Position numbers and translations under genes: made by a program. A DNA stretch of 64,000 nt from Candidatus Eiseniibacteriota bacterium. Lineage in GTDB: Bacteria; Eisenbacteria; RBG-16-71-46; CAZAMP01. Below, piece after piece: positions 15,317-59,492 of this stretch. Every line of letters begins with the position of its first letter. The first letter of the stretch is position 1. The stretch is from contig OZ245046.1 of assembly GCA_965224245.1 (NCBI GenBank), positions 672,001 to 736,000 on the forward strand, written 5' to 3'. The notes beneath the pieces were generated by a model that was not told where the DNA came from, ran no database searches, and saw nothing but the letters and a program-made list of their open reading frames with translations.

Positions 15317-16198
15317 CTAGCGGAGGATCACGACGCGTGCGGACGTGACCGTCCCCCGGGCCTCGATCTCGACGAGATAGATCCCGCTCGGGAGCCGCCG
15401 GCCGTCCCGATCGTGGGTGTCGAGCACGAACGCGTGCACGCCCGCGCCGACCGATGTCTCGTGCGCGGCCGAGACCCGCCGTCCCGCCGGGTCGATGACC
15501 CGGATGGTCACGTCTCCGGGAGCCGACAGCGCGTAGACGATCTCCGCGCGCGTTCCGATCGCCGGGTTCGGCGTGACCGACAGGACCGACAGCACGTCCG
15601 GTGCGTCGGCGACGTCTCCGACCCCGACCGAGATGCAGTCCGAATCGCCCTCGTCGTAGGCGAGGTCACCGTCGTTGTCCAGCCCCAGACCGTCGCCGTC
15701 CCAGTCCTCGCCGTCGGGTGGCATCGGGGAGCACGGCTCCTTGACGTTCACGTCGTCGCGGAGATAGTGAACGGGACGGACGTCCTCAGGCAGCGGCACC
15801 GGGTCGCCGGGGTGGCAGTTCGCGCAGCGGAGCCCGTTCATGTCGGGCGGCACCCCGCTGGCCGTATGGTGGAGCCGAAGGCCGGCGCCCCAGCCCAGGT
15901 CGGTCCCGTTGTCGCGTCCATGACAGCCGCGGCAGCTCTGGGCCCCCGCGGCGCCGCCCTCGCTCGTGCGCGGATTGTCCCCGACCGACACGTGACAGAG
16001 CAGACACTCGGACGTCATCTGGTCGGGGCCGACGTGAAGGTCGTGGAGTGGACCCCGGCTGATGAATCCCGGATGACAGTCGGCGCATCCGCGCATCCCG
16101 CCCTGAGCCTCGTAGCGTTCGTAGCCGTCGGACGGGGTGGTGACGACCAGGACGAGCAGCAGTCCGGCCGAGACCCCGAGCCTAGAGAGCGCGCGCAC
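15317..16198 (-). CDS. Secreted tetraheme c-type cytochrome with acidic Ca-binding-like loop and FlgD-Ig/T9SS-like CTD
   Basis: Signal peptide. CADCH, CLLCH, CRGCH and CANCH. DWDGDGLGLDNDGD loop. TPNP...DPAGRRV...DGRRLPSGIY CTD. Confidence 0.85.
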   Translation of the reverse strand: MRALSRLGVSAGLLLVLVVTTPSDGYERYEAQGGMRGCADCHPGFISRGPLHDLHVGPDQMTSECLLCHVSVGDNPRTSEGGAAGAQSCRGCHGRDNGTDLGWGAGLRLHHTASGVPPDMNGLRCANCHPGDPVPLPEDVRPVHYLRDDVNVKEPCSPMPPDGEDWDGDGLGLDNDGDLAYDEGDSDCISVGVGDVADAPDVLSVLSVTPNPAIGTRAEIVYALSAPGDVTIRVIDPAGRRVSAAHETSVGAGVHAFVLDTHDRDGRRLPSGIYLVEIEARGTVTSARVVILR

Positions 16199-16327
16199 GG
16201 CAGCCTCCGAGGTTCGAGTGGATTCCGCAGACGGGGCCGACCAAGCTTAGCGGGAGGCTCCAGGAGAGCGGCGTAAGGGGTTTCCGAACATCTCGTGCGG
16301 ACTATGTCGTCGTGTCGCCGTCGACCC

Positions 16328-31443: not shown

Positions 31444-33633
31444 TCACCGCACGTGCACGATCCGCGTTCGGAGCTCCCCGCGACCCACGAAGTACACGCC
31501 GTTGGGTACGCGAATCCCCTGGTGCAGCGAGAGGTAGCTCCAGCGGCCGCGACCGCGTCCCGGGCCCACCGGATCGATGCGGACGATCGCCACGCGCCGG
31601 CCGTCCGCCGCGTACACCGGCAGTGAGGGGGGGAGAGGTCCCGGCGTCTCCACCGACAGCGTCGTCCAGCCCGTGCCCACGGTCGGGAACGCCCGGAGCA
31701 CGCCGGCCGTTGGCGGCGGCGTCTGGGGCCGGAGGTCCCTGCGCGTCGCCCGTTCGATCAGGTTTCGCGTCACCTGCTGCACCTCGGGATCCACGGAGAG
31801 GCCCCAGCACCAGCCCGTCGTCCCGCCGCTGAACAGGATCCCGCCGGCCGGCAGCGTCGCGATCACCATGAGCGCGTTTCCGGGCTCGTCGGTGTAGTAG
31901 TTGTCGCATGCGCTGTGGCCCAGCACGTGAGCGGGAGGCGTCCGGGGATCGGACCAGGCCAGCTCGGGCACCCCATCGGTGAACGTGAGCGGGCCGCCAT
32001 CGACCTCGTACCCGACGATGGCCTGTGCTCTGCCGAACGTGTCGCCGTCGCGGAGACCGGTGCCGTCGAAGACCCAGTGGCCGGCGTCGGTGACGGCATA
32101 ACCGCCGTAGCCGTCGAACCAGTCGAACTCGGTGTCGTCGGGGATCGCCGACCCGCTGGACCAGTTCACGTTGCCGCCATGGCGCCAGCTGAGGGCCGTG
32201 GCGAGCTCGGGGGGGCGCGGCGTCGGGAGCTCGTCCCACAGCCCGGTGACCTGCTTCGGATCGACGAGATGGTAAGGGTCCTGGTCGACCCGGTTCTTGT
32301 AGCACACGAGTCGTTCGCTGGACCCCAGGTCCACCGGATCGCGGTCGCCGGCGAGGCGGGTCTGCCACCACATCGTGTTTCCGGAGAAGCACAGGAGCGA
32401 TCCGCCGTTCGCGAGGAACGACTCGAGCGTGTTCCGCATCCGGCCGGTCCAGTACTCGCTGTGCCAGGTCAGAACGATCGCGCGATAGTGACGGAAGATG
32501 GTGTCGTCGTGGTGGAGATCGTGGTCGGAGAACACCCCCGCCCGGATGCCTTCGCGGTGGAGCCATCGCACCAGGTGCACGGGTGTGTGATAGAAGCCCA
32601 GGTAGCGGTGCTGGGTGGGGCGCTCGAAGCTGACCTCGTGGGTCCGGGTGGGCGGTGAGCCGTAGAAGTTCTTGCCGCCCCAGGCGTTGTAGGCCTGGTC
32701 GGTGTGCGTTGGGATGACCACGGCGAGGTCGCCATCGCGGCCGTTCCCCGAGACGATCATCGTCTCCCACGTCGAGCGCTCGCCGTCGTCGACCACCACG
32801 GTGTAGACCCCCGACGGCCAGTCGTCGCCCACGGGAATGGACACGCTCACCGGCCAGGCGCATCCGGCGCTGGAGACGTTCTCCGGGACCGGCTGCTCGA
32901 CGAGGCCGCGCATCGTGCCGCGCCACACGACCCGGGGTGCCTCGCCCTCGTACCGCACCTCGACGGCGGCCGTGGGGCGGGTGGCGGACGCGTGAAGAGC
33001 GACCGGTGTTCCGGCGGTCACCGATGTCGGCCGGAGATAGAAATCCAGCGTCTCCAGCTCTCCGCCGAGCCGGAGGCGCACGTCGTCCAGCCAGAATCGC
33101 CCCTGGCGCAGGACGCGAGAGGCGTGGAGACCGAACGACAGGTAGCACCGCCCGGCGCCATCACCGAGCCGCGGGTTGAAGCGGACCCGGTACGTGCGGA
33201 ACGACGGCGCGAGCCGGCCCACGAGCTGCAAGAGCGGCGCCCGACCGGCCCACTCCCCGCTCGTCGTCTGATAGATGACGTCCACTTGAAACGGGGAGTC
33301 GGGCATCTCCACCTTCAACGTGAAGGTGGCCTCGTAGACCGCATTCATCGAAGGCAGCTGGACCGAGGGGGAGGCCAGACGGTAGTGGAGCGTGACCGGC
33401 GGAGCGTCCACGCGCACCGACGGTGCCTCGGCTCCGTACACCCGCGGCGCCCGTGAGACCTGGAAGTAGTCGACGGCCGCGTCGGGCTCCTTCCGCCAGC
33501 CCGGCGCCAGTCCGGTCTCGGGGTCGGCATCGACGAACGACTCGTTCAGGAGGACCTGTGCCGACAGGGGCTCGGTCGCGATGGTGACGGAGAGGATCAG
33601 GACACCCACGAGGCACGTAGAGGGCGAGCGCAT
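31444..33633 (-). CDS. Secreted N,N-dimethylformamidase large-subunit-like protein with N-terminal beta-sandwich and degenerate CTD
   Basis: T.QAYN.WGGK..Y, VSFERP, HSEYW..MR, FSGNT.WWQ, GYEVDG and FSGGT..W. Signal peptide from MRSPST. ADGRRV...PNGVYFV tail. Confidence 0.8.
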   Translation of the reverse strand: MRSPSTCLVGVLILSVTIATEPLSAQVLLNESFVDADPETGLAPGWRKEPDAAVDYFQVSRAPRVYGAEAPSVRVDAPPVTLHYRLASPSVQLPSMNAVYEATFTLKVEMPDSPFQVDVIYQTTSGEWAGRAPLLQLVGRLAPSFRTYRVRFNPRLGDGAGRCYLSFGLHASRVLRQGRFWLDDVRLRLGGELETLDFYLRPTSVTAGTPVALHASATRPTAAVEVRYEGEAPRVVWRGTMRGLVEQPVPENVSSAGCAWPVSVSIPVGDDWPSGVYTVVVDDGERSTWETMIVSGNGRDGDLAVVIPTHTDQAYNAWGGKNFYGSPPTRTHEVSFERPTQHRYLGFYHTPVHLVRWLHREGIRAGVFSDHDLHHDDTIFRHYRAIVLTWHSEYWTGRMRNTLESFLANGGSLLCFSGNTMWWQTRLAGDRDPVDLGSSERLVCYKNRVDQDPYHLVDPKQVTGLWDELPTPRPPELATALSWRHGGNVNWSSGSAIPDDTEFDWFDGYGGYAVTDAGHWVFDGTGLRDGDTFGRAQAIVGYEVDGGPLTFTDGVPELAWSDPRTPPAHVLGHSACDNYYTDEPGNALMVIATLPAGGILFSGGTTGWCWGLSVDPEVQQVTRNLIERATRRDLRPQTPPPTAGVLRAFPTVGTGWTTLSVETPGPLPPSLPVYAADGRRVAIVRIDPVGPGRGRGRWSYLSLHQGIRVPNGVYFVGRGELRTRIVHVR

Positions 33634-33882
33634 ACCGCCTCCAGCTGAGAGATGGGTCTGTTCGCGGAGGGGTACGACCGGAGAATAGCCGGCGGGGGCT
33701 CGAGGTTCCAGCTTTCGACGCCGTGAGGCGTCCGTGCGTCGATGCCACGCATGGGGCGTCTGGCGACCGAGCCCGAGAAACTTCCGGACCCCGTTCCAAC
33801 CTTCTGGTCGCCGGGGGAGTCCTACCTGATGACATCGCCGGAGCATCGACTCGCACCACCCTCGAACCCGGAGCTGAATACA

Positions 33883-36591
33883 ATGCCATTCCGACCCGCG
33901 TTCGTCGCCGGAGTCCGCATGCGCGTCGCGCTCGCCGCCGTCCTGCTGGCCGGTGCGGCGACGTCGGTCGACGCCGAGAAACGAGATGGACCTCCATCCC
34001 CCACCATGGCTCCCCCCGTGATCTCCAGCACCATCCGCGCGTTCCGACTCTCCTCGGACGTGCGGATCGACGGCGTGCTCGACGACGCGGCCTGGAAGCG
34101 TGCCCCCAACGACGGTCTCGTGCAGCACGAGCCGAGCAACGGCGCCAGGCCGATCCACCGGACCGACTGGTGGATTGCGTACGACGACGACGCCTTGTAC
34201 GCCGCGTTCCGCTGCTACGACTCGGCGCCGGACTCCATCGACACGTCGGTGGGTCGTCGCGACGCGTCGCTCCTGACCGACGAGGTGTACCTGGAGCTGG
34301 ACACGTTCAACGACGATCGGAACGGCTACCTGTTCGTGGCCGGAGCGGGCGGATACTTCCTGGACGCGGTCCTGTACAACGACGGCTGGTGGGACAGCTC
34401 CTGGGATGCGGTCTGGTCCACCGCGTCGGAGGTCGACCGGGAGGGGTGGTGCGCCGAGATGCGCATCCCGTTCTCCCAGCTCGCGTTCGCGCCCGGGGAC
34501 GAGCAGGTCTGGGGCGTCAACGTCGTTCGCAACTGCAAGCGCCTCCAGTCCACCGACTATCTCTTCCACAAGCCCCGCAACGAGTCGGGGTACGTGAGCC
34601 GATACCCGGACCTCGTGGGCATCTCGGGCATCGCACCGCCGTCGAACCGCGAGGGCACCATCTACGGGGCGAGCAAGGGCGAGTACCTGAGCGCCGAGGA
34701 TGGCGATCCGTTCAACGACGGCTCCGAGTACGCCGCCGACGTGGGCGGCGACCTGAAGTGGGGGCTCACGTCGAACCTCACGCTGAACGCGACGATCAAC
34801 CCGGACTTCGGGCAGGTCGAGGTGGATCCGGCGGTCGTCAACCTGTCGAACTTCGAGACCTTCTTCCCGGAGAAGCGACCGTTCTTCGTCCAGGACGCGA
34901 ACACGTTCCGCTTCGGTCGGGACGGCACCGCCAGCAACTGGGGCTTCAACTGGACCGATCCGATGCTCTTCTACAGCCGCCGGATCGGGCGCGCTCCCCA
35001 GCTCCGGGTAACGGGCGATGCCGACCACGTGAGAACGCCGCACGGCACGACCATCCTGGGAGCGGCCAAGGTCACCGGCAAGGTCGGTGGCACCTCGCTC
35101 GGCGTGCTGAGCGCGCTCACCGGCCGCGAGCACCACGACCTCGCGCTGGGAGACGGGCGCTCGCGCGAGCTCGCCGAGCCGCTGACGAGCTACAACCTCG
35201 TACGCGCCACCCGCACGTCCGACGCGTCGACGCACGCGATCGGCGCGATGTTCACCGGCACCGAGCGCGACCTGAGCGATGCCAGGAGCGTATCCGCGCT
35301 ACCACGCCGCGCCTACGCCGGCGGGGTGGACGGCTGGGCACGTCTCGACGACGACGGCGTGTGGGCCATGCGCGGGTACGTGGCCGGGAGCTGGATCGAG
35401 GGCGACGCCGATGCGATCGCCGCCCGCCAGCGCTCGTCGCTCCGGTACCTGCACCGGCCCGACGCCGACCATCTCGACTACGATCCGTCGCGCACGTCGC
35501 TGTCCGGATGGTCCTCGCGGGTCATGCTGAACAAGCAGAAGGGTGACTACTCGCTCAACACCGCGATCGGCGCGACGTCTCCTGGCTTCGAGGTCTCGGA
35601 TCTGGGCTTCCAGGGCCGAGGCGACATCGTCAACACCCACCTGGCGGTGGGCCGGAGCTGGGACGAGCCTCGCGGTGTTCTCCGCAGCCGGAACGTGAAC
35701 CTGCACACGTACTGGACGTGGGACTTCTCGGGCCTACACACCGGGGGCGGCGCCGGAGCCAGCTTCTGGACCGAGTTCACGAACTACTGGTCCGTGAACG
35801 GTGGCGTCTTCTACAACCCCGAGCGCAACAACACCACCATCACCCGTGGCGGGCCGGTGCTCCGCCGGCCGATCAACCGCGAGTTCAACGTCGGCTTCTC
35901 CAGCGACCGGCGAAAGGCCTGGCGGCTGTCGGGGTTCGGCTTCGGCAGCTGGGGCGGACCCGGCGAGTCCAGTGCGTACGCCGAGCTCGGCGTCGAGGTG
36001 AAGCCAACGAGCGCCCTCAAGCTGTCGGTGAGCCCGGGGTACACCTGGGAGCACAACACCTCCCAGTACGTGGACACGATCGAGGACGCGGCGGCCACGT
36101 CGACGTTCGGCAGCCGGTATCTCTTCGCCGACCTCGAGTACGTCGAGGCGTCGATGACGTTCCGCGTGGACTGGTCGTTCACGCCGAGGCTGACGCTGCA
36201 GTCGTACGTCCAGCCGCTGATCGCGGTCGGGGACTATCGCGGACTGAAGCAGTTCGCCGAGCCGGGCACGTTCGACTTCGACGTCTACGGGGAGACTCCG
36301 GGGTCGTCGATCTCCCACGAGCCGGGTGCCGAGTACGAGATCGATCCCGGCGACGGCGGCGACACGTTCACCGTGCGGGACCCCGACTTCAACTTCAAGT
36401 CGATCCGCCTGAATACCGTGCTGCGCTGGGAGTACAGCCCGGGCTCGACGTTCTATCTCGTCTGGACCCGCAACGGCACCAACTTCGACCACGCCGGTCA
36501 GTTCGACCTGGGTCGCGACGTCGGCGATCTGATGAACGCGCCGGGCGACGACGTGCTCCTGGTCAAGGTGACCCGCTGGTTCGATTTCTAG
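33883..36591 (+). CDS. DUF5916-type protein (CBM9-like domain + outer-membrane beta-barrel)
   Basis: IDGVLDD.AW, W.AEMRIPFSQL, TINPDFGQVE.D, F.EKRPFF and FYSRRIG motifs, C-terminal Phe. Alternative start at 33919. Confidence 0.85.
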   Translation: MPFRPAFVAGVRMRVALAAVLLAGAATSVDAEKRDGPPSPTMAPPVISSTIRAFRLSSDVRIDGVLDDAAWKRAPNDGLVQHEPSNGARPIHRTDWWIAYDDDALYAAFRCYDSAPDSIDTSVGRRDASLLTDEVYLELDTFNDDRNGYLFVAGAGGYFLDAVLYNDGWWDSSWDAVWSTASEVDREGWCAEMRIPFSQLAFAPGDEQVWGVNVVRNCKRLQSTDYLFHKPRNESGYVSRYPDLVGISGIAPPSNREGTIYGASKGEYLSAEDGDPFNDGSEYAADVGGDLKWGLTSNLTLNATINPDFGQVEVDPAVVNLSNFETFFPEKRPFFVQDANTFRFGRDGTASNWGFNWTDPMLFYSRRIGRAPQLRVTGDADHVRTPHGTTILGAAKVTGKVGGTSLGVLSALTGREHHDLALGDGRSRELAEPLTSYNLVRATRTSDASTHAIGAMFTGTERDLSDARSVSALPRRAYAGGVDGWARLDDDGVWAMRGYVAGSWIEGDADAIAARQRSSLRYLHRPDADHLDYDPSRTSLSGWSSRVMLNKQKGDYSLNTAIGATSPGFEVSDLGFQGRGDIVNTHLAVGRSWDEPRGVLRSRNVNLHTYWTWDFSGLHTGGGAGASFWTEFTNYWSVNGGVFYNPERNNTTITRGGPVLRRPINREFNVGFSSDRRKAWRLSGFGFGSWGGPGESSAYAELGVEVKPTSALKLSVSPGYTWEHNTSQYVDTIEDAAATSTFGSRYLFADLEYVEASMTFRVDWSFTPRLTLQSYVQPLIAVGDYRGLKQFAEPGTFDFDVYGETPGSSISHEPGAEYEIDPGDGGDTFTVRDPDFNFKSIRLNTVLRWEYSPGSTFYLVWTRNGTNFDHAGQFDLGRDVGDLMNAPGDDVLLVKVTRWFDF

Positions 36592-39898: not shown

Positions 39899-40075
39899 TC
39901 GCAGGGCCGGAACGGCCCCACCGCTACCCATACCTGACCGTCGTCCTGCCCGAGCAAGAGCGTAGGCCCGGTTTCCAACCGTGGCCGCATTCGAGTGCAC
40001 CGGTCGTCCGATCTGTGGCATGTTTGCCGCGTATCGGTTTCTGGAGATCCGAGCTGGGCCTCGAGGAGGACTGTC

Positions 40076-40771
40076 ATGACACGATCGATGTCGAAGACGG
40101 TGTGCCGGAGGGCATGCGCCGCCCTCACGGTGGTGATCCTGTGGGCGCCGGGCGCTCACGCGTACGAGCAGTGGTCGCAGAACGGCGGCGACGCGACCAA
40201 CTGCGGGACCTGCCACGGCGACTTCCGGAACGCCGACTACACGTCGCCGAGCGATGGCATGAACTGGGGAAACCTGCACAACCTTCACCGCTCGACGATG
40301 CTCAGCGGCGACTGTGACGTGTGTCACTCCGGCAGCAGTCGGTTTCCGGTCCTGATCGACGTCTCGAACGGGGGAGACGGGCTCGCTGGCATCTCCTGCA
40401 TGGGCTGCCACGGACGCGCGGCCGACGACACGCCGGAGAACCCGGAGTTCCCGAACGGCGCCGGCGCCGGGCTGCGCCAGCATCACCACAACGCCGGAGC
40501 CACCGTGTGCGCCGATTGCCACGACGATGCGGACCCGGCGAACTACGTTCCGGTGGGCGAGCACGTTCTGCCCGAGTACTACGCGAACCCGGGCAACAAT
40601 CACCCCGCGATGCCGCAGAGTCCGTGCAACGGCTCGGGGACCGAGGACTTCGCCGGGAGCGCGGACGGTCTGGACAACGACGGCGACCTGGACTACGACG
40701 CGACCGACGCCGACTGCTCCACGCCCGTGCGGGAGACCACGTGGGGTCGGATCCGAGCGTCCTATCGGTAG
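40076..40771 (+). CDS. Secreted tetraheme c-type cytochrome with acidic loop and short 'TTWGRIRASYR' tail; paralog of 15317-16198
   Basis: GAGGAGG RBS, signal peptide ending AHA, CGTCH, CDVCH, CMGCH, CADCH and DGLDNDGDLDYD. Confidence 0.88.
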   Translation: MTRSMSKTVCRRACAALTVVILWAPGAHAYEQWSQNGGDATNCGTCHGDFRNADYTSPSDGMNWGNLHNLHRSTMLSGDCDVCHSGSSRFPVLIDVSNGGDGLAGISCMGCHGRAADDTPENPEFPNGAGAGLRQHHHNAGATVCADCHDDADPANYVPVGEHVLPEYYANPGNNHPAMPQSPCNGSGTEDFAGSADGLDNDGDLDYDATDADCSTPVRETTWGRIRASYR

Positions 40772-54130: not shown

Positions 54131-56344
54131 ATGTCTCGCGTCTCGCGGCGATCGTTCATCAAGGTCGGGGGGGCCGCATCCGCCGGTGTCGCGATGTCCG
54201 GGCTCACCAGCAACTGGTGGGGGCTCGATCCCGATCGCGTCCACGATCCGTCAACCGACGGAGATCGGGTGGTGCCGACGTTCTGTGAGCTGTGCTTCTG
54301 GAAGTGCGGCGTTCTCGCTCACGTCACGAACGGTCGGGTCACGAAGATCGTGGGCAACCCCGCGCACCCGCTCTCACGCGGGCGGCTCTGTCCCCGCGGG
54401 ACCGGCGGCGTGGGGCTTCTGTACGACCCCGATCGCCTCCGGCAGCCGCTGCTCCGGGTCTCGAAACGCGGCTCCGACGAGTTCGAGCCGGTCAGCTGGG
54501 ACACCGCGCTCGATCACGTGGCCACGAACCTGGCCAGGATCCGGGACGAGCACGGTCCCGAGGCGGTCGCACTCTACAGCCACGGCTACGGCGGCTCGTG
54601 GTTCAAGCACCTCATGCATGCGTACGGGTCGCCGAACGTCGCCGCGCCGTCCTACGCGCAGTGCCGTGGACCGCGCGAGGTCGGCTTTCAGCTCACGTTC
54701 GGCTCCGGGGTCGGATCGCCGGAGAACACGGACATGCCCAACGCCCGCGTCATCACGCTGATCGGCTCGCATCTCGGTGAGAACATGCACAACACGCAGG
54801 TGCAGGATCTCGCCGAAGCCCTCGACCGGGGCGCGGAGCTGATCGTCGTCGATCCGCGGTTCTCGACCGCGGCCGGGAAGGCGCGCCACTGGCTGCCGAT
54901 CAAGCCCGGAACCGACATCGCGCTCCTTCTGGCGTGGATGCACGTGATCATCGAGGAGAAGCTCTACGCGCGCGACTACGTCGAGCGCTACGCGACGGGG
55001 TTCGATGCGCTGCGTGCCCACGTGCGCGACAAGACGCCGGAGTGGGCGTTCACCCGGACGACCATTCCGCCCGAGACGATCGTGGCCACCGCGCGCCTGA
55101 TGGCCGGGGCGAGCCCGGCGTCGCTCGTCCACCCCGGGCGTCACGTCACGTGGTACGGCGACGACACCCAGCGCAGCCGGGCCATCGCGATCCTGAACGC
55201 GCTGCTCGGCGCGTGGGGACATCGTGGCGGCTTCGTCCTGCCGACGGCGATGTCGATCCCGCCGTATCCGTACGCGCATCCAGGTGTGAGGATGCCCGCG
55301 AGCGCGGACATGCCGAGGGATACGGTCTACCCGATGGCCGGCGCCACGCTGGCGTCCGGTCTCTGTGACGCATCGATCCCCGGAACGGCCGACTACGACA
55401 TCCGGTCCTGGATCGTCTACGGCACCAACCTGATCCAGTCACTTCCCGATCCCCGGAAAACGCGCCGGGCGCTGGCCGAGCTCGACTTCGTGGTCGCGAT
55501 CGACGTGCTGCCGATGGAGATCGTCGGCTGGGCCGACGTGGTGCTGCCCGAGGCCACGTATCTCGAGCGCTGTGACGAAGTGCACGCGCCGCCGTTCCGG
55601 ACGCCGTTCCTCGCGGTGCGTCAGCCCGTGGTCGAGCCGATGTACGACACGAGGCCCGGCTGGCGGATCGCGCGGGAGATCGGCACACGGCTCGGTCTCG
55701 ACGAGTACTTCCCGTGGACCGACAGCGTCGAGTATGCCAAGCGTCGAGTGTCGGATGCGGGTCTCGACTGCGAGACGCTGATGACGACGGGCGTGATCGA
55801 GGGGCCTCCATCGCCGATCACGATCGAGGACGGCCTCGAGCCCTCGTTCGCCACGCCATCGGGCAAGATCGAGCTCTACTCACGACAGCTCGCCGACTCG
55901 GGCTTCGATCCGATGCCGGTCTATCGGGCCCCGGAGGAGCCGCCGCCGGGGTCGTTCCGGCTGCTCTTCGGACGGGCGCCGATGCACACGTTCGGCCGCA
56001 CCACCAACAACCGCTTCCTGTCGGAGGTTCACGACGAAAACGAGGTGTGGGTAAACGCCCGGATCGCCCGCGAGCGCGGGATCGCCGACCGTGAGCGGGT
56101 CACCCTCGTCAACCAGGACGGAGTGCGCTCCGCCCCGATCCGCGTACGTGCCACCGAGCGGATCCGACCGGACTGCGTCTACATGGTTCATGGGTATGGT
56201 CACACCGCGAAGGGTCTCCGCTTCGCGCGCGGCCGGGGGGCGAGCGACGCCGAGCTCGTCACCCGCGTCGCCGTGGATCCGATCATGGGTGGCACCGGGA
56301 TGAACGTGAACGTCGTCACGATCGAAAAGGGGGCGCCGGCATGA
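54131..56344 (+). CDS. psrA: Polysulfide/thiosulfate reductase molybdopterin subunit (PsrA/PhsA-like), Tat-exported
   Basis: SRRSFIK Tat motif, CELCFWKC...CPRG FS0 cluster, SYAQCRG (Cys Mo ligand), HLGEN, HPGR, ADVVLP..TYLER and PSGKIELYS. Confidence 0.85.
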   Translation: MSRVSRRSFIKVGGAASAGVAMSGLTSNWWGLDPDRVHDPSTDGDRVVPTFCELCFWKCGVLAHVTNGRVTKIVGNPAHPLSRGRLCPRGTGGVGLLYDPDRLRQPLLRVSKRGSDEFEPVSWDTALDHVATNLARIRDEHGPEAVALYSHGYGGSWFKHLMHAYGSPNVAAPSYAQCRGPREVGFQLTFGSGVGSPENTDMPNARVITLIGSHLGENMHNTQVQDLAEALDRGAELIVVDPRFSTAAGKARHWLPIKPGTDIALLLAWMHVIIEEKLYARDYVERYATGFDALRAHVRDKTPEWAFTRTTIPPETIVATARLMAGASPASLVHPGRHVTWYGDDTQRSRAIAILNALLGAWGHRGGFVLPTAMSIPPYPYAHPGVRMPASADMPRDTVYPMAGATLASGLCDASIPGTADYDIRSWIVYGTNLIQSLPDPRKTRRALAELDFVVAIDVLPMEIVGWADVVLPEATYLERCDEVHAPPFRTPFLAVRQPVVEPMYDTRPGWRIAREIGTRLGLDEYFPWTDSVEYAKRRVSDAGLDCETLMTTGVIEGPPSPITIEDGLEPSFATPSGKIELYSRQLADSGFDPMPVYRAPEEPPPGSFRLLFGRAPMHTFGRTTNNRFLSEVHDENEVWVNARIARERGIADRERVTLVNQDGVRSAPIRVRATERIRPDCVYMVHGYGHTAKGLRFARGRGASDAELVTRVAVDPIMGGTGMNVNVVTIEKGAPA

Positions 56345-56883
56345 GCGCGAAACGCTACGCGATGGCCGTCGACACGCGCCTCTGTGTCGGCTGCAGCGCC
56401 TGCGTGCTGGCCTGCAAGGCGGAGAACGACGTCCCCGATGGTTACTGCCGGGACTGGATCGTCGAGGAGGTGCGCGGAACGTATCCGGACCTCCGCGCCG
56501 AGATCCGGTCCGAGCGCTGCAATCACTGCAGCCGTCCGCCCTGTGTGTCGTCGTGCCCCACGGGGGCGAGCCACCTGAGCGACGGCGGGGTGGTGCTGGT
56601 CACGCACGACAGGTGCACCGGATGCAAGGCATGCATCGCGTCGTGTCCGTACGATGCGCGGTTCGTGCATCCTGACGGATACGTCGACAAGTGCACGTTC
56701 TGTCTGCACCGCGTGCGCCACGGCGAGGAGCCGGCCTGCGTTGCGGTGTGTCCCACGCGATGTCTGACGTTCGGCGATCTGAACGATCCGGACTCGCGCC
56801 TCTCCATGCTCCTTCGGACGCGAGAGCACACGGTCAATCATCCCGAGACCGGGTGCGACCCCAACGTCTACTTCCTGGTGTGA
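56341..56883 (+). CDS. psrB: 4Fe-4S electron-transfer subunit (PsrB/NrfC-like)
   Basis: CVGCSACVLAC, CNHCSRPPCVSSCP, CTGCKACIASCP and CTFC...CVAVCP. Confidence 0.88.
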   Translation: MSAKRYAMAVDTRLCVGCSACVLACKAENDVPDGYCRDWIVEEVRGTYPDLRAEIRSERCNHCSRPPCVSSCPTGASHLSDGGVVLVTHDRCTGCKACIASCPYDARFVHPDGYVDKCTFCLHRVRHGEEPACVAVCPTRCLTFGDLNDPDSRLSMLLRTREHTVNHPETGCDPNVYFLV

Positions 56884-56896
56884 GGAGGAGAGAGTC

Positions 56897-57811
56897 ATGT
56901 CGCTCGCATCGGTCCCCGTCGAGATCCTGCACGGGAGACACAATCCTCACATCGATCCGGTGCTCCACGTCTGGGGCTGGGAGATTCCCGTCTACCTGTT
57001 CCTCGGTGGACTGGCTGCCGGGCTCATCGTGCTGTCGGCGATCCTCGCCCGACGGCCGGACGCCGGGGAGCTGCCGGCGCGTATCCGGCGCATGCCGCTG
57101 GTCGCGCTCGGGCTCCTGAGCGTTGGAATGGGGGCGCTGCTCCTCGATCTCGAGTATCCGTCCCACGTACTCCGCTTCTTCGCGAGCTTCCAGCCGGCGT
57201 CTCCGATGTCGTGGGGGTCGTGGATCCTCGTGCTCGTGTACCCGTCCGCCCTGGCGCTGGCCTGGCGACTCGAGCGCCGGAAGCCCGTCGGGTCCGGCGT
57301 TGCGATGCTGGCCGTTGCCGCGGGGGTCGCGCTCGGCATCTACACCGGCGTCCTTCTCGGCGCGCTCGGTGCGCGGCCGCTCTGGAACTCGGCGGTGCTG
57401 GGCCCGCTGTTCCTGGTCTCGGGGCTGTCGACCGGCGCCGCGCTGATGCTCCTCGCCCGTCCCGGTCCTCGCGCGGCGGCACGCCTGACCCGCTGGGACA
57501 CCGGCCTCATCGTGCTGGAGCTCGTCCTGATCGGGGTGTTCGTCATCGGCCTGGCGTCGGGTGGACGCGCGGCCGCGCACTCCCTCGCGCTGATTCTCGG
57601 CGGACCCTACACGCCGATCTTCTGGGCGCTCGTGGTGATCGCGGGACTCCTGGTTCCGCTCCTCGTGAACGGGCTCGAGATCAGCCACCGGGTCCCGGTC
57701 AACGCGGTGGCGCCGATCCTCGTGCTCGTCGGCGGCCTGGCGCTCCGGTGGGTGCTCGTCGTCGCCGGGCAGCACTCGACGGTGGGTCTGTCGGCTCTCG
57801 TGGGGAGGTGA
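56897..57811 (+). CDS. psrC: NrfD/PsrC-family membrane anchor
   Basis: WGWEIPVYLFLGGLAAG, SPMSWGSWIL, YTGVLL...RPLWN and LVGGLALR. Confidence 0.88.
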   Translation: MSLASVPVEILHGRHNPHIDPVLHVWGWEIPVYLFLGGLAAGLIVLSAILARRPDAGELPARIRRMPLVALGLLSVGMGALLLDLEYPSHVLRFFASFQPASPMSWGSWILVLVYPSALALAWRLERRKPVGSGVAMLAVAAGVALGIYTGVLLGALGARPLWNSAVLGPLFLVSGLSTGAALMLLARPGPRAAARLTRWDTGLIVLELVLIGVFVIGLASGGRAAAHSLALILGGPYTPIFWALVVIAGLLVPLLVNGLEISHRVPVNAVAPILVLVGGLALRWVLVVAGQHSTVGLSALVGR

Positions 57812-57831
57812 CACCGTGGACGTGAAACTAT

Positions 57832-58317
57832 GTGGCCGGCGTCGTGCTGGGGCTCGTGCTGCTGACCTCGTTCCTCGTGCTGGGGATGGGGCTCGGCTCA
57901 TCGGGCGCCGTGACCCGACTCGGCGTCGGCATCTCTCATCTGATCGCTCCGGACGCCGTCGAGAGCAACGCGTACCTGTCGCGGTACGTCGGTCCGGGAA
58001 AGTCGCACGTGCTCGATGACTGGCTCGTGTTCCTGGTGCTCGGCGTGTTCCTGGGCGGTGCCGTGGGTGCGCTGAGCGGGGGCCGGCTCCGCCGGGAGGT
58101 CGTGCGCGGACCGCGAATGTCGGCGCTCGGCCGCATCCTGCTGGCCGTCGCGGGCGGCGTGCTGATGGGCGTGGCCGCTCGCTTCGCCCGCGGCTGCACC
58201 TCGGGACAGGCGCTCTCGGGGGGAGCCCTGCTGTCCGTGGGGTCGTGGGTGTTCATGCTCGCGGTGTTCGCCGGCGGCTATCTCCTGGCGCCGGTGGTGC
58301 GGAGGCAATGGCGATGA
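57832..58317 (+). CDS. YeeE/YedE (TsuA-like) sulfur-compound transporter, first half; 5' end apparently disrupted
   Basis: YVAGVVLGL, GLGSSG and GG.LMG.AARFARGCTSGQALSG. The RBS-linked start at 57816 is out of frame and the in-frame GTG at 57808 hits TGA at 57823. Confidence 0.75.
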   Translation: MAGVVLGLVLLTSFLVLGMGLGSSGAVTRLGVGISHLIAPDAVESNAYLSRYVGPGKSHVLDDWLVFLVLGVFLGGAVGALSGGRLRREVVRGPRMSALGRILLAVAGGVLMGVAARFARGCTSGQALSGGALLSVGSWVFMLAVFAGGYLLAPVVRRQWR

Positions 58318-59492
58318 CGACGCTTCCACTCTACATGAACGACGCGTTCGGGTATCCGGTGGGCCTGGTCCTGGCGGTCGTGATCGGCTTCGGGTTCGGC
58401 TTCGCGCTGGAGCGGGCCGGGTTCGGCCGGGCATCGGTGCTGGCCGCGCAGTTCTATCTCACCGACATGCGTGTCCTGAAGGTGATGTTCACCGCGATCG
58501 TGACCGCGCTGATCGGGACGACGATCGCATCGGCGGTCGGCGTGCTCGATCTCTCGCAGGTCGCGGTGCCCCACACCTACCTCTGGCCGCAGCTCGTGGG
58601 CGGGCTCCTGCTCGGTGCGGGCTTCATCGTGTCCGGCTACTGCCCGGGGACCGGCGTCGTGGCGGCCGCATCGGGTAAGCTCGACGGACTCGCCGCGATC
58701 GCGGGCGTGATGCTCGGCTCGGTTCTGTTCGGGCTCGCGTACCCGTGGGTGGAGTCGTTCCACCTGTCGGGTGATCTCGGTGTCTTTCGTCTCACCGATC
58801 TCATACACCTCTCCCAGCCGATCCTCGCACTCCTGGTCACCGCGATGGCGCTGGCCATGTTCCTCGGAGGCGAGGCACTCGAGCGGTGGCAGGCCACTCG
58901 CGATCGCAGCACGCCGCCCGAGGTGTCGCGCGCGCCGCGCCGCCGCGCTCTCGTGGGCCTGGGCGTGGGCGCGCTGGCCGGGCTGGCCACGCTTCTGGTC
59001 CCGGTCCGAGTGACGTCCGATGAGCCCGTCCCGGCGCCGGGACGGATCTCCGCGCTCCAGCTCGCGGAGGTGCTCGTGCGCGACCCGTCGTCGCTCTTCG
59101 TGATCGACGTGCGCCCCGACGGGGGCGGCGATCCGATCCCGGGCGCGATGCGCGTCCCGGCGGGCGACACGCTGGAGTCGTTCGTGGCGCGCCTGCCGGG
59201 CACGCGTCTTCTCGTGGTCTACGACGAGCGCGGGGAATCGGATGCGCTCGAGGAGGCGGTCGGCGGATTCGACGGTCGCGTCGCGACGCTCACGGGTGGA
59301 TACGAGGCGTTCGATCGCACGATCCTGTCGCCGCCGGAGCCGATCGAGAGCCCGAGCGCCGACGACGTCGCGCTGCATCGCCTGCGCGCGGCGCTTCATG
59401 CACACTTCACCGGATCCAGCCAGTCCGCGCCGCCGCCCGTGGTGCCGAAGAAGGCGGTGCAGCGTTCGACCACGCGTGCCGGAGGGTGCTGA
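58314..59492 (+). CDS. YeeE/YedE second half fused to a Cys-less rhodanese domain, ending in GGC
   Basis: GFGFALERAGF, GGLLLG.GF...GYCPGT, IDVR...IPGA, VVYDERG, LTGG and terminal RAGGC*. ATGA overlap with the previous gene. Confidence 0.85.
   Translation: MTTLPLYMNDAFGYPVGLVLAVVIGFGFGFALERAGFGRASVLAAQFYLTDMRVLKVMFTAIVTALIGTTIASAVGVLDLSQVAVPHTYLWPQLVGGLLLGAGFIVSGYCPGTGVVAAASGKLDGLAAIAGVMLGSVLFGLAYPWVESFHLSGDLGVFRLTDLIHLSQPILALLVTAMALAMFLGGEALERWQATRDRSTPPEVSRAPRRRALVGLGVGALAGLATLLVPVRVTSDEPVPAPGRISALQLAEVLVRDPSSLFVIDVRPDGGGDPIPGAMRVPAGDTLESFVARLPGTRLLVVYDERGESDALEEAVGGFDGRVATLTGGYEAFDRTILSPPEPIESPSADDVALHRLRAALHAHFTGSSQSAPPPVVPKKAVQRSTTRAGGC

Follow-up and report, generated by a model that had tools for sequence, protein, structure and literature searches.

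Is a small tetraheme cytochrome that ends in a T9SS-like sorting domain sent to the cell surface, and what would it do there? The question is raised by a single gene in the window, by which we mean the whole stretch of 64,000 nucleotides that was analysed; the first-pass annotation had seen in its product a candidate surface-exported electron carrier. The tail of this protein reads as a T9SS address tag, so that the cytochrome is likely sent to the cell surface. Taken as a whole, the reading that we favor, in which the tailed tetraheme cytochrome is matured in the periplasm, exported in the manner of T9SS cargo, and put to work as a surface electron relay, has a probability of about 0.5. Of its parts, export through a T9SS-type route is likely, and electron relay, given export, is fairly probable.

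The gene and its product

Table 1. Positions in the window of the cytochrome gene, its sequence elements, and its paralog.
Feature	Position	Strand	Basis
Gene, 293-aa tetraheme cytochrome with T9SS type A tail (P0001/P0002)	15317..16198	-	ORF call, profiles
GGAGG ribosome-binding-site-like motif, 5 nt 5' of GTG start	16204..16208	-	sequence
Signal peptide of Sec type without lipobox Cys, aa 1-25; predicted cleavage S-D-G↓Y26	16124..16198	-	hydropathy
Y-x-x-Y at the mature N terminus, aa 26-29; its N-terminal amine a candidate heme ligand	16112..16123	-	motif conservation
CxxCH 1 (C38-H42)	16073..16087	-	sequence and homolog alignment
H52-x-x-H55 (within LHDLH), two likely distal ligands	16034..16045	-	homolog conservation
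CxxCH 2 (C65-H69)	15992..16006	-	sequence and homolog alignment
CxxCH 3 (C89-H93)	15920..15934	-	sequence and homolog alignment
G-L-R-x-H-H, aa 106-111 (within GAGLRLHH)	15866..15883	-	homolog conservation
CxxCH 4 (C125-H129)	15812..15826	-	sequence and homolog alignment
Acidic loop C156-C188, likely disulfide-closed, putative Ca-binding module	15635..15733	-	Cys conservation
T9SS type A / FlgD-Ig C-terminal domain (CTD), seven strands, D236-P-A-G239-R-R loop	15320..15592	-	profiles, model
Paralog, same core, mature start near 40160; short TWG peptide at 40718-40768 in place of CTD	39995..40771	+	ORF and profile

The N terminus of the protein is basic and hydrophobic, is free of cysteine, and ends in S-D-G↓Y; it is called a signal peptide here by hydropathy rather than by a signal-peptide predictor, and the residue before the inferred cleavage site is Ala, Gly, or Ser in 109 of 113 homologs. 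A lipoprotein was considered and rejected, as no cysteine precedes C38 and a lipobox-like pattern occurs in 1 of 120 homologs. The four CxxCH motifs, which like the signal peptide had been recognized in the first pass, are confirmed at residues 38, 65, 89, and 125. None of 100,000 shuffled sequences contained three or more such motifs, and each CxxCH residue is kept in 252–260 of 260 homologs. This homolog set was left after a loop-motif filter had removed 26 of 286 proteins; 4 of those removed are unrelated polyhemes, and the 13 inspected among the other 22 all have an N-terminal core. Spacing is tight, at ~26 residues per heme across residues 26–130, and the core is strongly acidic (29 Asp/Glu versus 11 Lys/Arg).

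Downstream of the hemes lies the cysteine-bracketed acidic loop of the first-pass annotation (C156...EDWDGDGLGLDNDGD...C188), which also holds up: 12 of its 35 residues are Asp or Glu, and C156 and C188 are each present in 251 of 260 homologs, whereas conservation of D174, D176, and G177 in the same set is there by construction of the loop-motif filter. The profile NF033662 matches the loop weakly, below its cut-off. We infer that the loop binds Ca and is closed by a C156–C188 disulfide.

One assembled contig spans the gene and the cytochrome–tail junction with zero differences, although it probably comes from the source sample and so is not independent; a sequencing run from a second study covers just 151 bases. 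No RNA data set was listed as containing the sequence, a result that carries no information on expression. A frame artefact was rejected for the ORF. No promoter or terminator was found on the strand of the gene, which is flanked upstream by a glycosidase-like gene and downstream by a PAS kinase gene. The paralog is the only other ORF in the window with at least two CxxCH motifs and is 34% identical to the gene product over 209 columns (E 1e-14). It lacks the CTD and ends in a short TWG peptide.

The tail as a T9SS type A domain

The tail scores 31.6 bits against TIGR04183 (cut-off 23) over residues 208–291 of 293 and 29.9 bits against FlgD_ig (cut-off 27). Its AF2 model has seven strands with a pLDDT of 94.6, and the best Foldseek match for this model is the CTD of PorU (6za2, E 9e-5, TMq 0.74). 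PorU (Z 11.0) and PorZ (Z 10.9) share the tied top rows of VIA-align with unrelated Ig domains, for instance those of an S-layer protein and of alpha-2-macroglobulin; Ig sandwiches like that of the tail are common. The D-x-x-G-R-R loop, here D236-P-A-G-R-R, matches the loop of RgpB whose glycine is required for secretion (PMC11285876, seen in part). The protein thus has the sequence features of T9SS type A cargo, namely TIGR04183 at the extreme C terminus, a seven-strand Ig fold, and a Gly loop between β3 and β4. A flagellar FlgD orthologue was rejected, with an equivalog score of 26.6 against a cut-off of 230.

The proteins nearby that share this CTD had been described as secreted hydrolases. 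Most of those in the window are instead FG-GAP, Ig, beta-helix, and LVIVD proteins, and in the adjacent melibiase-like protein the CTD scores only weakly (FlgD_ig, 13.6 bits). Separately, a dimethylformamidase beta-subunit-like protein (PF20254, 229.9 bits) encoded at 31444–35235 on the minus strand of the window has a CTD-like tail at its end.

Export and heme-maturation genes of the host

In the host genome (G000; 6.9 Mb, 97% complete), one gene product scores 555 bits as SprA (cut-off 200) and another 469 bits as PorU (cut-off 420), with a PorV-family gene directly after porU. Ca. Eisenbacteria is the probable phylum of the host: of 16 genomes compared by PNPase, 12 yielded a match, and the one from Ca. 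Eisenbacteria was the most similar (62% versus 48–59%). Seven PorV-family genes exceed the family cut-off; the one beside PorU passes the PorV/PorQ family cut-off but fails the PorV equivalog (99 < 250). PorV is present in 41 of 41 relatives. For heme maturation, the host genome has a CcmE/F/B/C cluster. By a profile built here, 459 ORFs of this genome end in the same tail, hydrolases and adhesin-like proteins among them; 150 of 415 tail candidates were scored with TIGR04183, and all exceeded its cut-off. The SprA pore is described as wide enough for folded cargo, and type A tails as cleaved by PorU (PMC12398890, in the part of that review available to us).

Motor components gave a different picture. 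GldM was detected in 0 of 61 genomes of the phylum, a count taken with control genomes that included no true T9SS and that therefore does not show absence. With controls of the same kind, GldN and GldM_1st gave no match in the host genome, and GldK and PorZ matched there only below cut-off. The loci at G000:C1:2011581-2018606 and 2561900-2576100 hold SprA, PorU, and PorV intact, possibly as a motor-less T9SS; the porU–porV cluster also includes a BamA-like gene and a second large barrel, which matches SprA weakly.

One core under many tails

In the 260 homologs, the core is followed by a T9SS domain (18), a TWG peptide (26), a dockerin-like tail (39), a TM-plus-basic tail (23), DGFESG (10), an FYRL-type tail (7), or others (137), all assigned by pattern. 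Profile scores over cut-off back the assignment in single examples of Dockerin_GC, IPTL-CTERM, T9SS, and adhesin-repeat tails: P0090 ends in a GC-type dockerin (35.4 > 29), P0110 in IPTL-CTERM (22.4 > 20.5), and P0133 in adhesin repeats. PEP-CTERM-, MYXO-CTERM-, and DGFESG-like tails were recognized by eye and had no model match among 25 proteins scanned. In other phyla, the core is also joined to PKD and Ig domains and to Ser/Thr/Pro stalks. The survey of homologs proposed in the first pass thus yields the same core under many lineage-specific tails, of which the T9SS domain is one.

SprA occurs in 16 of 77 carrier genomes. All 11 CTD/TWG loci (2 CTD, 9 TWG) lie in SprA-positive genomes, the other five of which have other tails, and neither CTD nor TWG was found among the readable tails of 61 SprA-negative genomes; this co-occurrence is confounded by lineage, such carriers being all FCB relatives, and does not count as independent evidence. 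In the SprA-negative genomes, nine tails extend past the end of the locus and were unread, and two further loci (L030 and L077) were not parsed.

Tails have changed hands within the family. On a FastTree tree of 114 cores (all 54 CTD/TWG rows and 60 random others), the CTD label needs 5 changes, 2 of them forced by starred branches; for the two tails, the changes so forced number at least 2 (CTD) and at least 3 (TWG). The two window copies are distant from each other on this tree. At G166:C258, adjacent and near-identical sister paralogs (L124 and L118) end one in a T9SS domain and the other in a TWG tail, a difference that reads in the sequences as a recent swap. The simplest reading of a core that takes its host's own label for exported proteins is that it belongs outside the cell.

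Three observations concern the short tails themselves. The TWG tail, for which there is no NCBIfam match, ends at least 72 coding-like ORFs of the host genome, versus 2 internal matches. On this core, TWG and T9SS tails tend to open with a similar T/S-P/G-V junction. In two SprA-positive genomes, a short tail of the form G-P-P-H-x-x-V-P-V-x-R follows the same core (L072, L081, and P0109) and is possibly a third minimal signal.

It could be argued that SprA, PorV, and PorU act here without a motor and that the FlgD-like tail is a domain for docking at the inner face of the outer membrane, for folding, or for retention, such that the protein would be a periplasmic electron carrier. The missing motor matches, the PorZ score under cut-off, and the match of the tail to flagellar FlgD are what one would expect in that case, as is the paralog's passing of Pfam models built on periplasmic carriers (see below). 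Yet the SprA, PorU, and PorV genes are intact, PorV extends through all the relatives, the tail is shared by hundreds of ORFs that include hydrolases and adhesin-like proteins, and in other phyla the core carries PKD, Ig, dockerin, and sorting tails of the kinds usual for outside proteins. We consider a periplasmic carrier quite unlikely. The tail score, the modeled match to the PorU CTD, the presence of SprA/PorV/PorU and Ccm, and the swapping of tails all speak for export after periplasmic maturation, the order of events proposed in the first pass.

A widespread core family

A search with the core returned 299 proteins close to it in length, plus 44 that are longer, and at E ≤ 1e-30 the family comprises 388 clusters at 50% identity, a count that takes in a few unrelated polyhemes. 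Of the genomic stretches that carry it, 119 were confirmed and 80 kept, with 79 of the 80 titled MAG; one false hit (L096) is left out of all locus counts, and L100, whose assembly is that of L075, is left out of the SprA test. By record title, the phyla include Krumholzibacteriota, Latescibacterota, Eisenbacteria, Gemmatimonadota, Planctomycetota, Acidobacteriota, Myxococcota, Nitrospirota, Verrucomicrobiota, and Desulfobacterota, among others, but phylum counts are approximate, as the titles of L058, L066, L078, L079, L095, and L097 look mislabelled. Among the records of this kind are Flavobacteriales without a SprA match and Rickettsiales with genomes of 9.6–10.3 Mb. In the host phylum, strong core matches occur in only 3 of 151 genomes.

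The first-pass annotation had asked whether the core belongs to a characterized periplasmic cytochrome family, and for P0001 no such family is matched over its cut-off: c7 scores 21.4 (< 24.8), c3_2 scores 16.5 (< 25), and the c554 and NapC–NrfH profiles are below cut-off too. On these scores, membership in c3, c7, or CctA was rejected for P0001. The paralog passes both PF14537 cytochrome c3_2 (31.3 > 25) and PF14522 c7 (27.6 > 24.8). PDB sequence matches of the core are weak and CxxCH-driven. The AF2 core model is confident (pLDDT 89.1, pTM 0.82) and has short helices only. With this model, which is heme-free and loop-rich and may therefore miss matches, Foldseek returned one row (cytochrome f, 1vf5_C, E 7.9, Z < 2) and VIA-align none at Z ≥ 2; the best ESM Atlas score was 0.76, under the 0.9 lead level. 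The core is an uncharacterized, widespread family without a solved-structure match.

Three candidate distal ligands for four hemes

Four additional histidines had been proposed to complete four bis-His hemes. All four are present (H52, H55, H110, and H111), but only three are conserved as ligands would be. H111 is found in 260 of 260 homologs, H55 in 254, and H52 in 241, with Met in its place in 11; a His-to-Met swap is a classic heme-ligand exchange. H110 is found in 226 of 260 (105 of 120 in a smaller set), and in the other 34 it gives way to Arg, Leu, Tyr, Phe, Lys, or Ile. From the alignment, then, only H52, H55, and H111 behave like distal ligands, leaving three good candidates for four hemes, and four bis-His hemes appear doubtful. 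The AF2 core model, confident as it is, is heme-free and gave no heme geometry.

What might close the fourth heme? An aromatic-x-x-aromatic motif opens the mature chain directly after Ala, Gly, Ser, or Thr in 239 of 249 signal-bearing homologs. All 260 proteins have the core domain at their N terminus, also the 68 that are at least 500 residues long, and it heads fusions with 12 to 21 hemes as well. In cytochrome f, the N-terminal α-amine ligates the heme iron. The fourth ligand here may likewise be the N-terminal amine of Y26, and a free amine in this role would explain both the aromatic start motif and the strict N-terminal position.

The alternative to an amine ligand is an open heme site lined by R108, H110, and E138. 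On this alternative, the protein would be exported in the same way to serve as an extracellular redox enzyme or ligand sensor, with one five-coordinate heme in the R108/H110/E138 pocket and the other three hemes as a wire. The shortage of conserved His/Met distal candidates leaves room for such a site, R108 and E138 are kept in 246 and 260 of 260 homologs, respectively, a di-heme peroxidase-family protein in the same genome bears the same tail, and the T9SS-tagged members of the family stand alone, without electron-transfer neighbors. Against this, the tight heme spacing and the short helices of the model provide hardly enough chain to form a pocket, and a different ligand is available through the strict N-terminal position with its aromatic +1 residue. 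The core also heads 12- to 21-heme proteins, and no catalytic family matches over cut-off. An enzyme or sensor therefore seems unlikely. As for the acidic loop, calcium close to the hemes of an acidic cytochrome is able to shift potentials upward (PMC11791136, in the portion seen).

Redox surroundings and other tagged cytochromes

Of 79 homolog loci (784 kb), 22 hold another ORF with at least four CxxCH motifs, compared with 2 of 60 control stretches (681 kb) from 20 genomes chosen for having multiheme neighbors, 1 of 19 unselected control stretches, and 5% of random 12.5-kb windows of the host genome. The neighbors of L037 and L030 are DmsE/MtrA-type decahemes with MtrB-family barrels; others are NrfH-like or cytochrome b–fused membrane multihemes. 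Beyond generic families, no neighbor family is conserved across the homolog loci. Within ~6 kb of the 11 CTD/TWG loci and of both window copies, no neighbor with four or more hemes was found. The role in extracellular electron transfer proposed in the first pass hence gains from the redox neighbors of the wider family but not from this gene, which has none, nor from the T9SS motor, which was not found; an electron-transfer role is plausible.

Could the core instead be a component of a surface matrix or of adhesion, storing charge or heme or scavenging oxidants, with no dedicated respiratory wire? Its frequent fusion to Ser/Thr/Pro stalks and adhesin repeats, its patchy distribution, and its strongly acidic composition would suit such a role. 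However, multiheme and porin–cytochrome neighbors are enriched about ten-fold in the wider family, and the core is fused into longer heme chains, making a matrix component very unlikely.

Elsewhere, the host genome encodes an OmcS homolog (E 3.6e-39) and a decaheme protein (167.6 bits, under the DmsE cut-off) that adjoins a barrel-like ORF without a family match; the MtrB/PioB family has no match in this genome. The OmcS homolog and the decaheme/barrel-like pair could feed a surface cytochrome. In the window itself, positions 54131–59492 on the plus strand encode a molybdopterin oxidoreductase, Fe-S and NrfD-like subunits, and YeeE/YedE-like membrane proteins, read by eye as a polysulfide/thiosulfate reductase-type operon.

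The cytochrome of the window is not the only one with this tail. Eight more host-genome proteins with at least two CxxCH motifs bear a T9SS-type tail, nine in total. Four of them (G000:C1:972477-974669, 2907169-2909976, 4394429-4397284, and 4724792-4727101; L234–L236) are related proteins with 5–6 hemes. Three of these four were scanned and matched no cytochrome family over cut-off, and L234 has no PDB match beyond FlgD; judged from their sequences, the four are a second uncharacterized family of tailed multihemes. The others are a 4-heme protein (G000:C1:6051246-6053483), a di-heme peroxidase-family protein (244981-246468), and two propeller-diheme proteins (420319-423186 and 6432546-6435371). 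A small diheme protein with a TWG tail (G000:C1:3915993-3916721, L240) has no Pfam match.

Relation to known systems

With T9SS type A cargo of Bacteroidota (RgpB, PorU, and PorZ), the protein shares a signal peptide, a seven-strand TIGR04183 tail, the D-x-x-G-R-R loop, and a genome with SprA, PorV, and PorU; it differs in being a multiheme c-type cytochrome and in having a host outside Bacteroidota in which the motor and PorZ were not found. MtrC, OmcA, MtrF, and UndA of Shewanella are likewise multiheme c-type cytochromes that, once matured in the periplasm, a secretion system carries over the outer membrane (PMC7096707, seen in part). Theirs is type II secretion, with an acylated N-terminal cysteine, whereas this protein has no lipobox and four hemes, and similarity of the core to the MtrC/OmcA type is scattered and at the level of CxxCH (profile E 2.6e-5, several weak stretches).

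The first-pass statement that surface cytochromes are lipoproteins or parts of porin–cytochrome complexes proves a little narrow, as cases in ANME archaea and in Carboxydothermus have been described. ANME multihemes with PGF-CTERM/PEF-CTERM or S-layer domains are also directed to the cell surface by a C-terminal sorting signal (PMC5244752, partial text). They are archaeal, depend on an archaeosortase, and have no outer membrane to cross; the likeness seen here lies in the sorting signal. The best PDB sequence match of the family profile is 6QVM ("Multiheme cytochrome cf"; E 2.4e-6, with the signal peptide and first hemes as the best stretch), which we take to be OmhA. OmhA of Carboxydothermus ferrireducens is a loosely attached surface cytochrome outside porin–cytochrome complexes (PMC7829351, partial text), but it has eleven hemes and a Gram-positive host, and no single stretch of it matches the core better than E 0.07, nor is there a fold match.

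Among small cytochromes, c7 (PpcA), c3, and the small tetraheme CctA resemble the core in size, in an H-x-x-H before CxxCH, and in weak profile matches; the present protein adds the acidic loop, presumably disulfide-closed, and the sorting tail, and there is no structural match. Cytochrome f and the Cyt572/Cyc2 modules share a mature chain that starts aromatic-x-x-aromatic just before CxxCH but are monoheme, with bodies unrelated to this core. For Cyt572, the mature start A↓YPGF comes from Edman sequencing (PMC13741234, seen in part).

No paper joining T9SS with multiheme cytochromes, or T9SS with these phyla, was found among the matches listed, although supplements or subscription papers may hold precedent. 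The word "cytochrome" is absent from the main text of two T9SS reviews (PMC11205867 and PMC12398890), and sorting terms are absent from 10.1101/2025.05.29.656830, PMC11475568, and PMC5539420; the portions seen of PMC5526843, PMC8406198, PMC12954380, and 10.1101/695007 hold no statement on amine ligation or tailed cytochromes. In the literature searched, then, we found no prior description of T9SS as an export route for cytochromes.

Proposed mechanism and implications

We predict that the protein would be exported by Sec, with cleavage before Y26, and that Ccm would attach four hemes in the periplasm. Three of these are probably His/His, through H52, H55, and H111, and the fourth would most likely be closed by the Y26 amine. 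The C156–C188 disulfide around the Ca-binding loop would stabilize the protein outside the cell and may tune its potentials. The folded cytochrome would then pass the SprA/PorV pore, PorV collecting the tail and PorU removing it, and the 165-residue core would be released or tethered at the cell surface. There, it could take electrons from porin–cytochrome or OmcS-type systems and pass them to minerals, humics, or partner cells, with flow possible in either direction.

A broader proposal, which we put forward tentatively and hold to be somewhat short of even odds, is that, in candidate phyla of the FCB group, a T9SS working without a motor carries heme-loaded multiheme cytochromes out of the cell and so provides a third route of extracellular electron transfer, next to type II-secreted lipoproteins and to porin–cytochrome or filament systems. 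Its best example would be a new amine- and Ca-loop-capped tetraheme fold that many phyla join to their own surface labels.

If export is real, the known T9SS repertoire of hydrolases and adhesins extends to respiratory heme proteins, and surveys of extracellular electron transfer based on lipoproteins, porin–cytochrome pairs, and filaments would miss this class. A simple rule for finding it, CxxCH plus a T9SS tail, picks out nine tailed multi-CxxCH proteins in this genome. The 165-residue core is small and expressible, which would allow a direct test of amine ligation and Ca tuning in a multiheme chain, and the recent swaps between T9SS domain and TWG peptide make the core a coloured reporter for the function of the TWG peptide.
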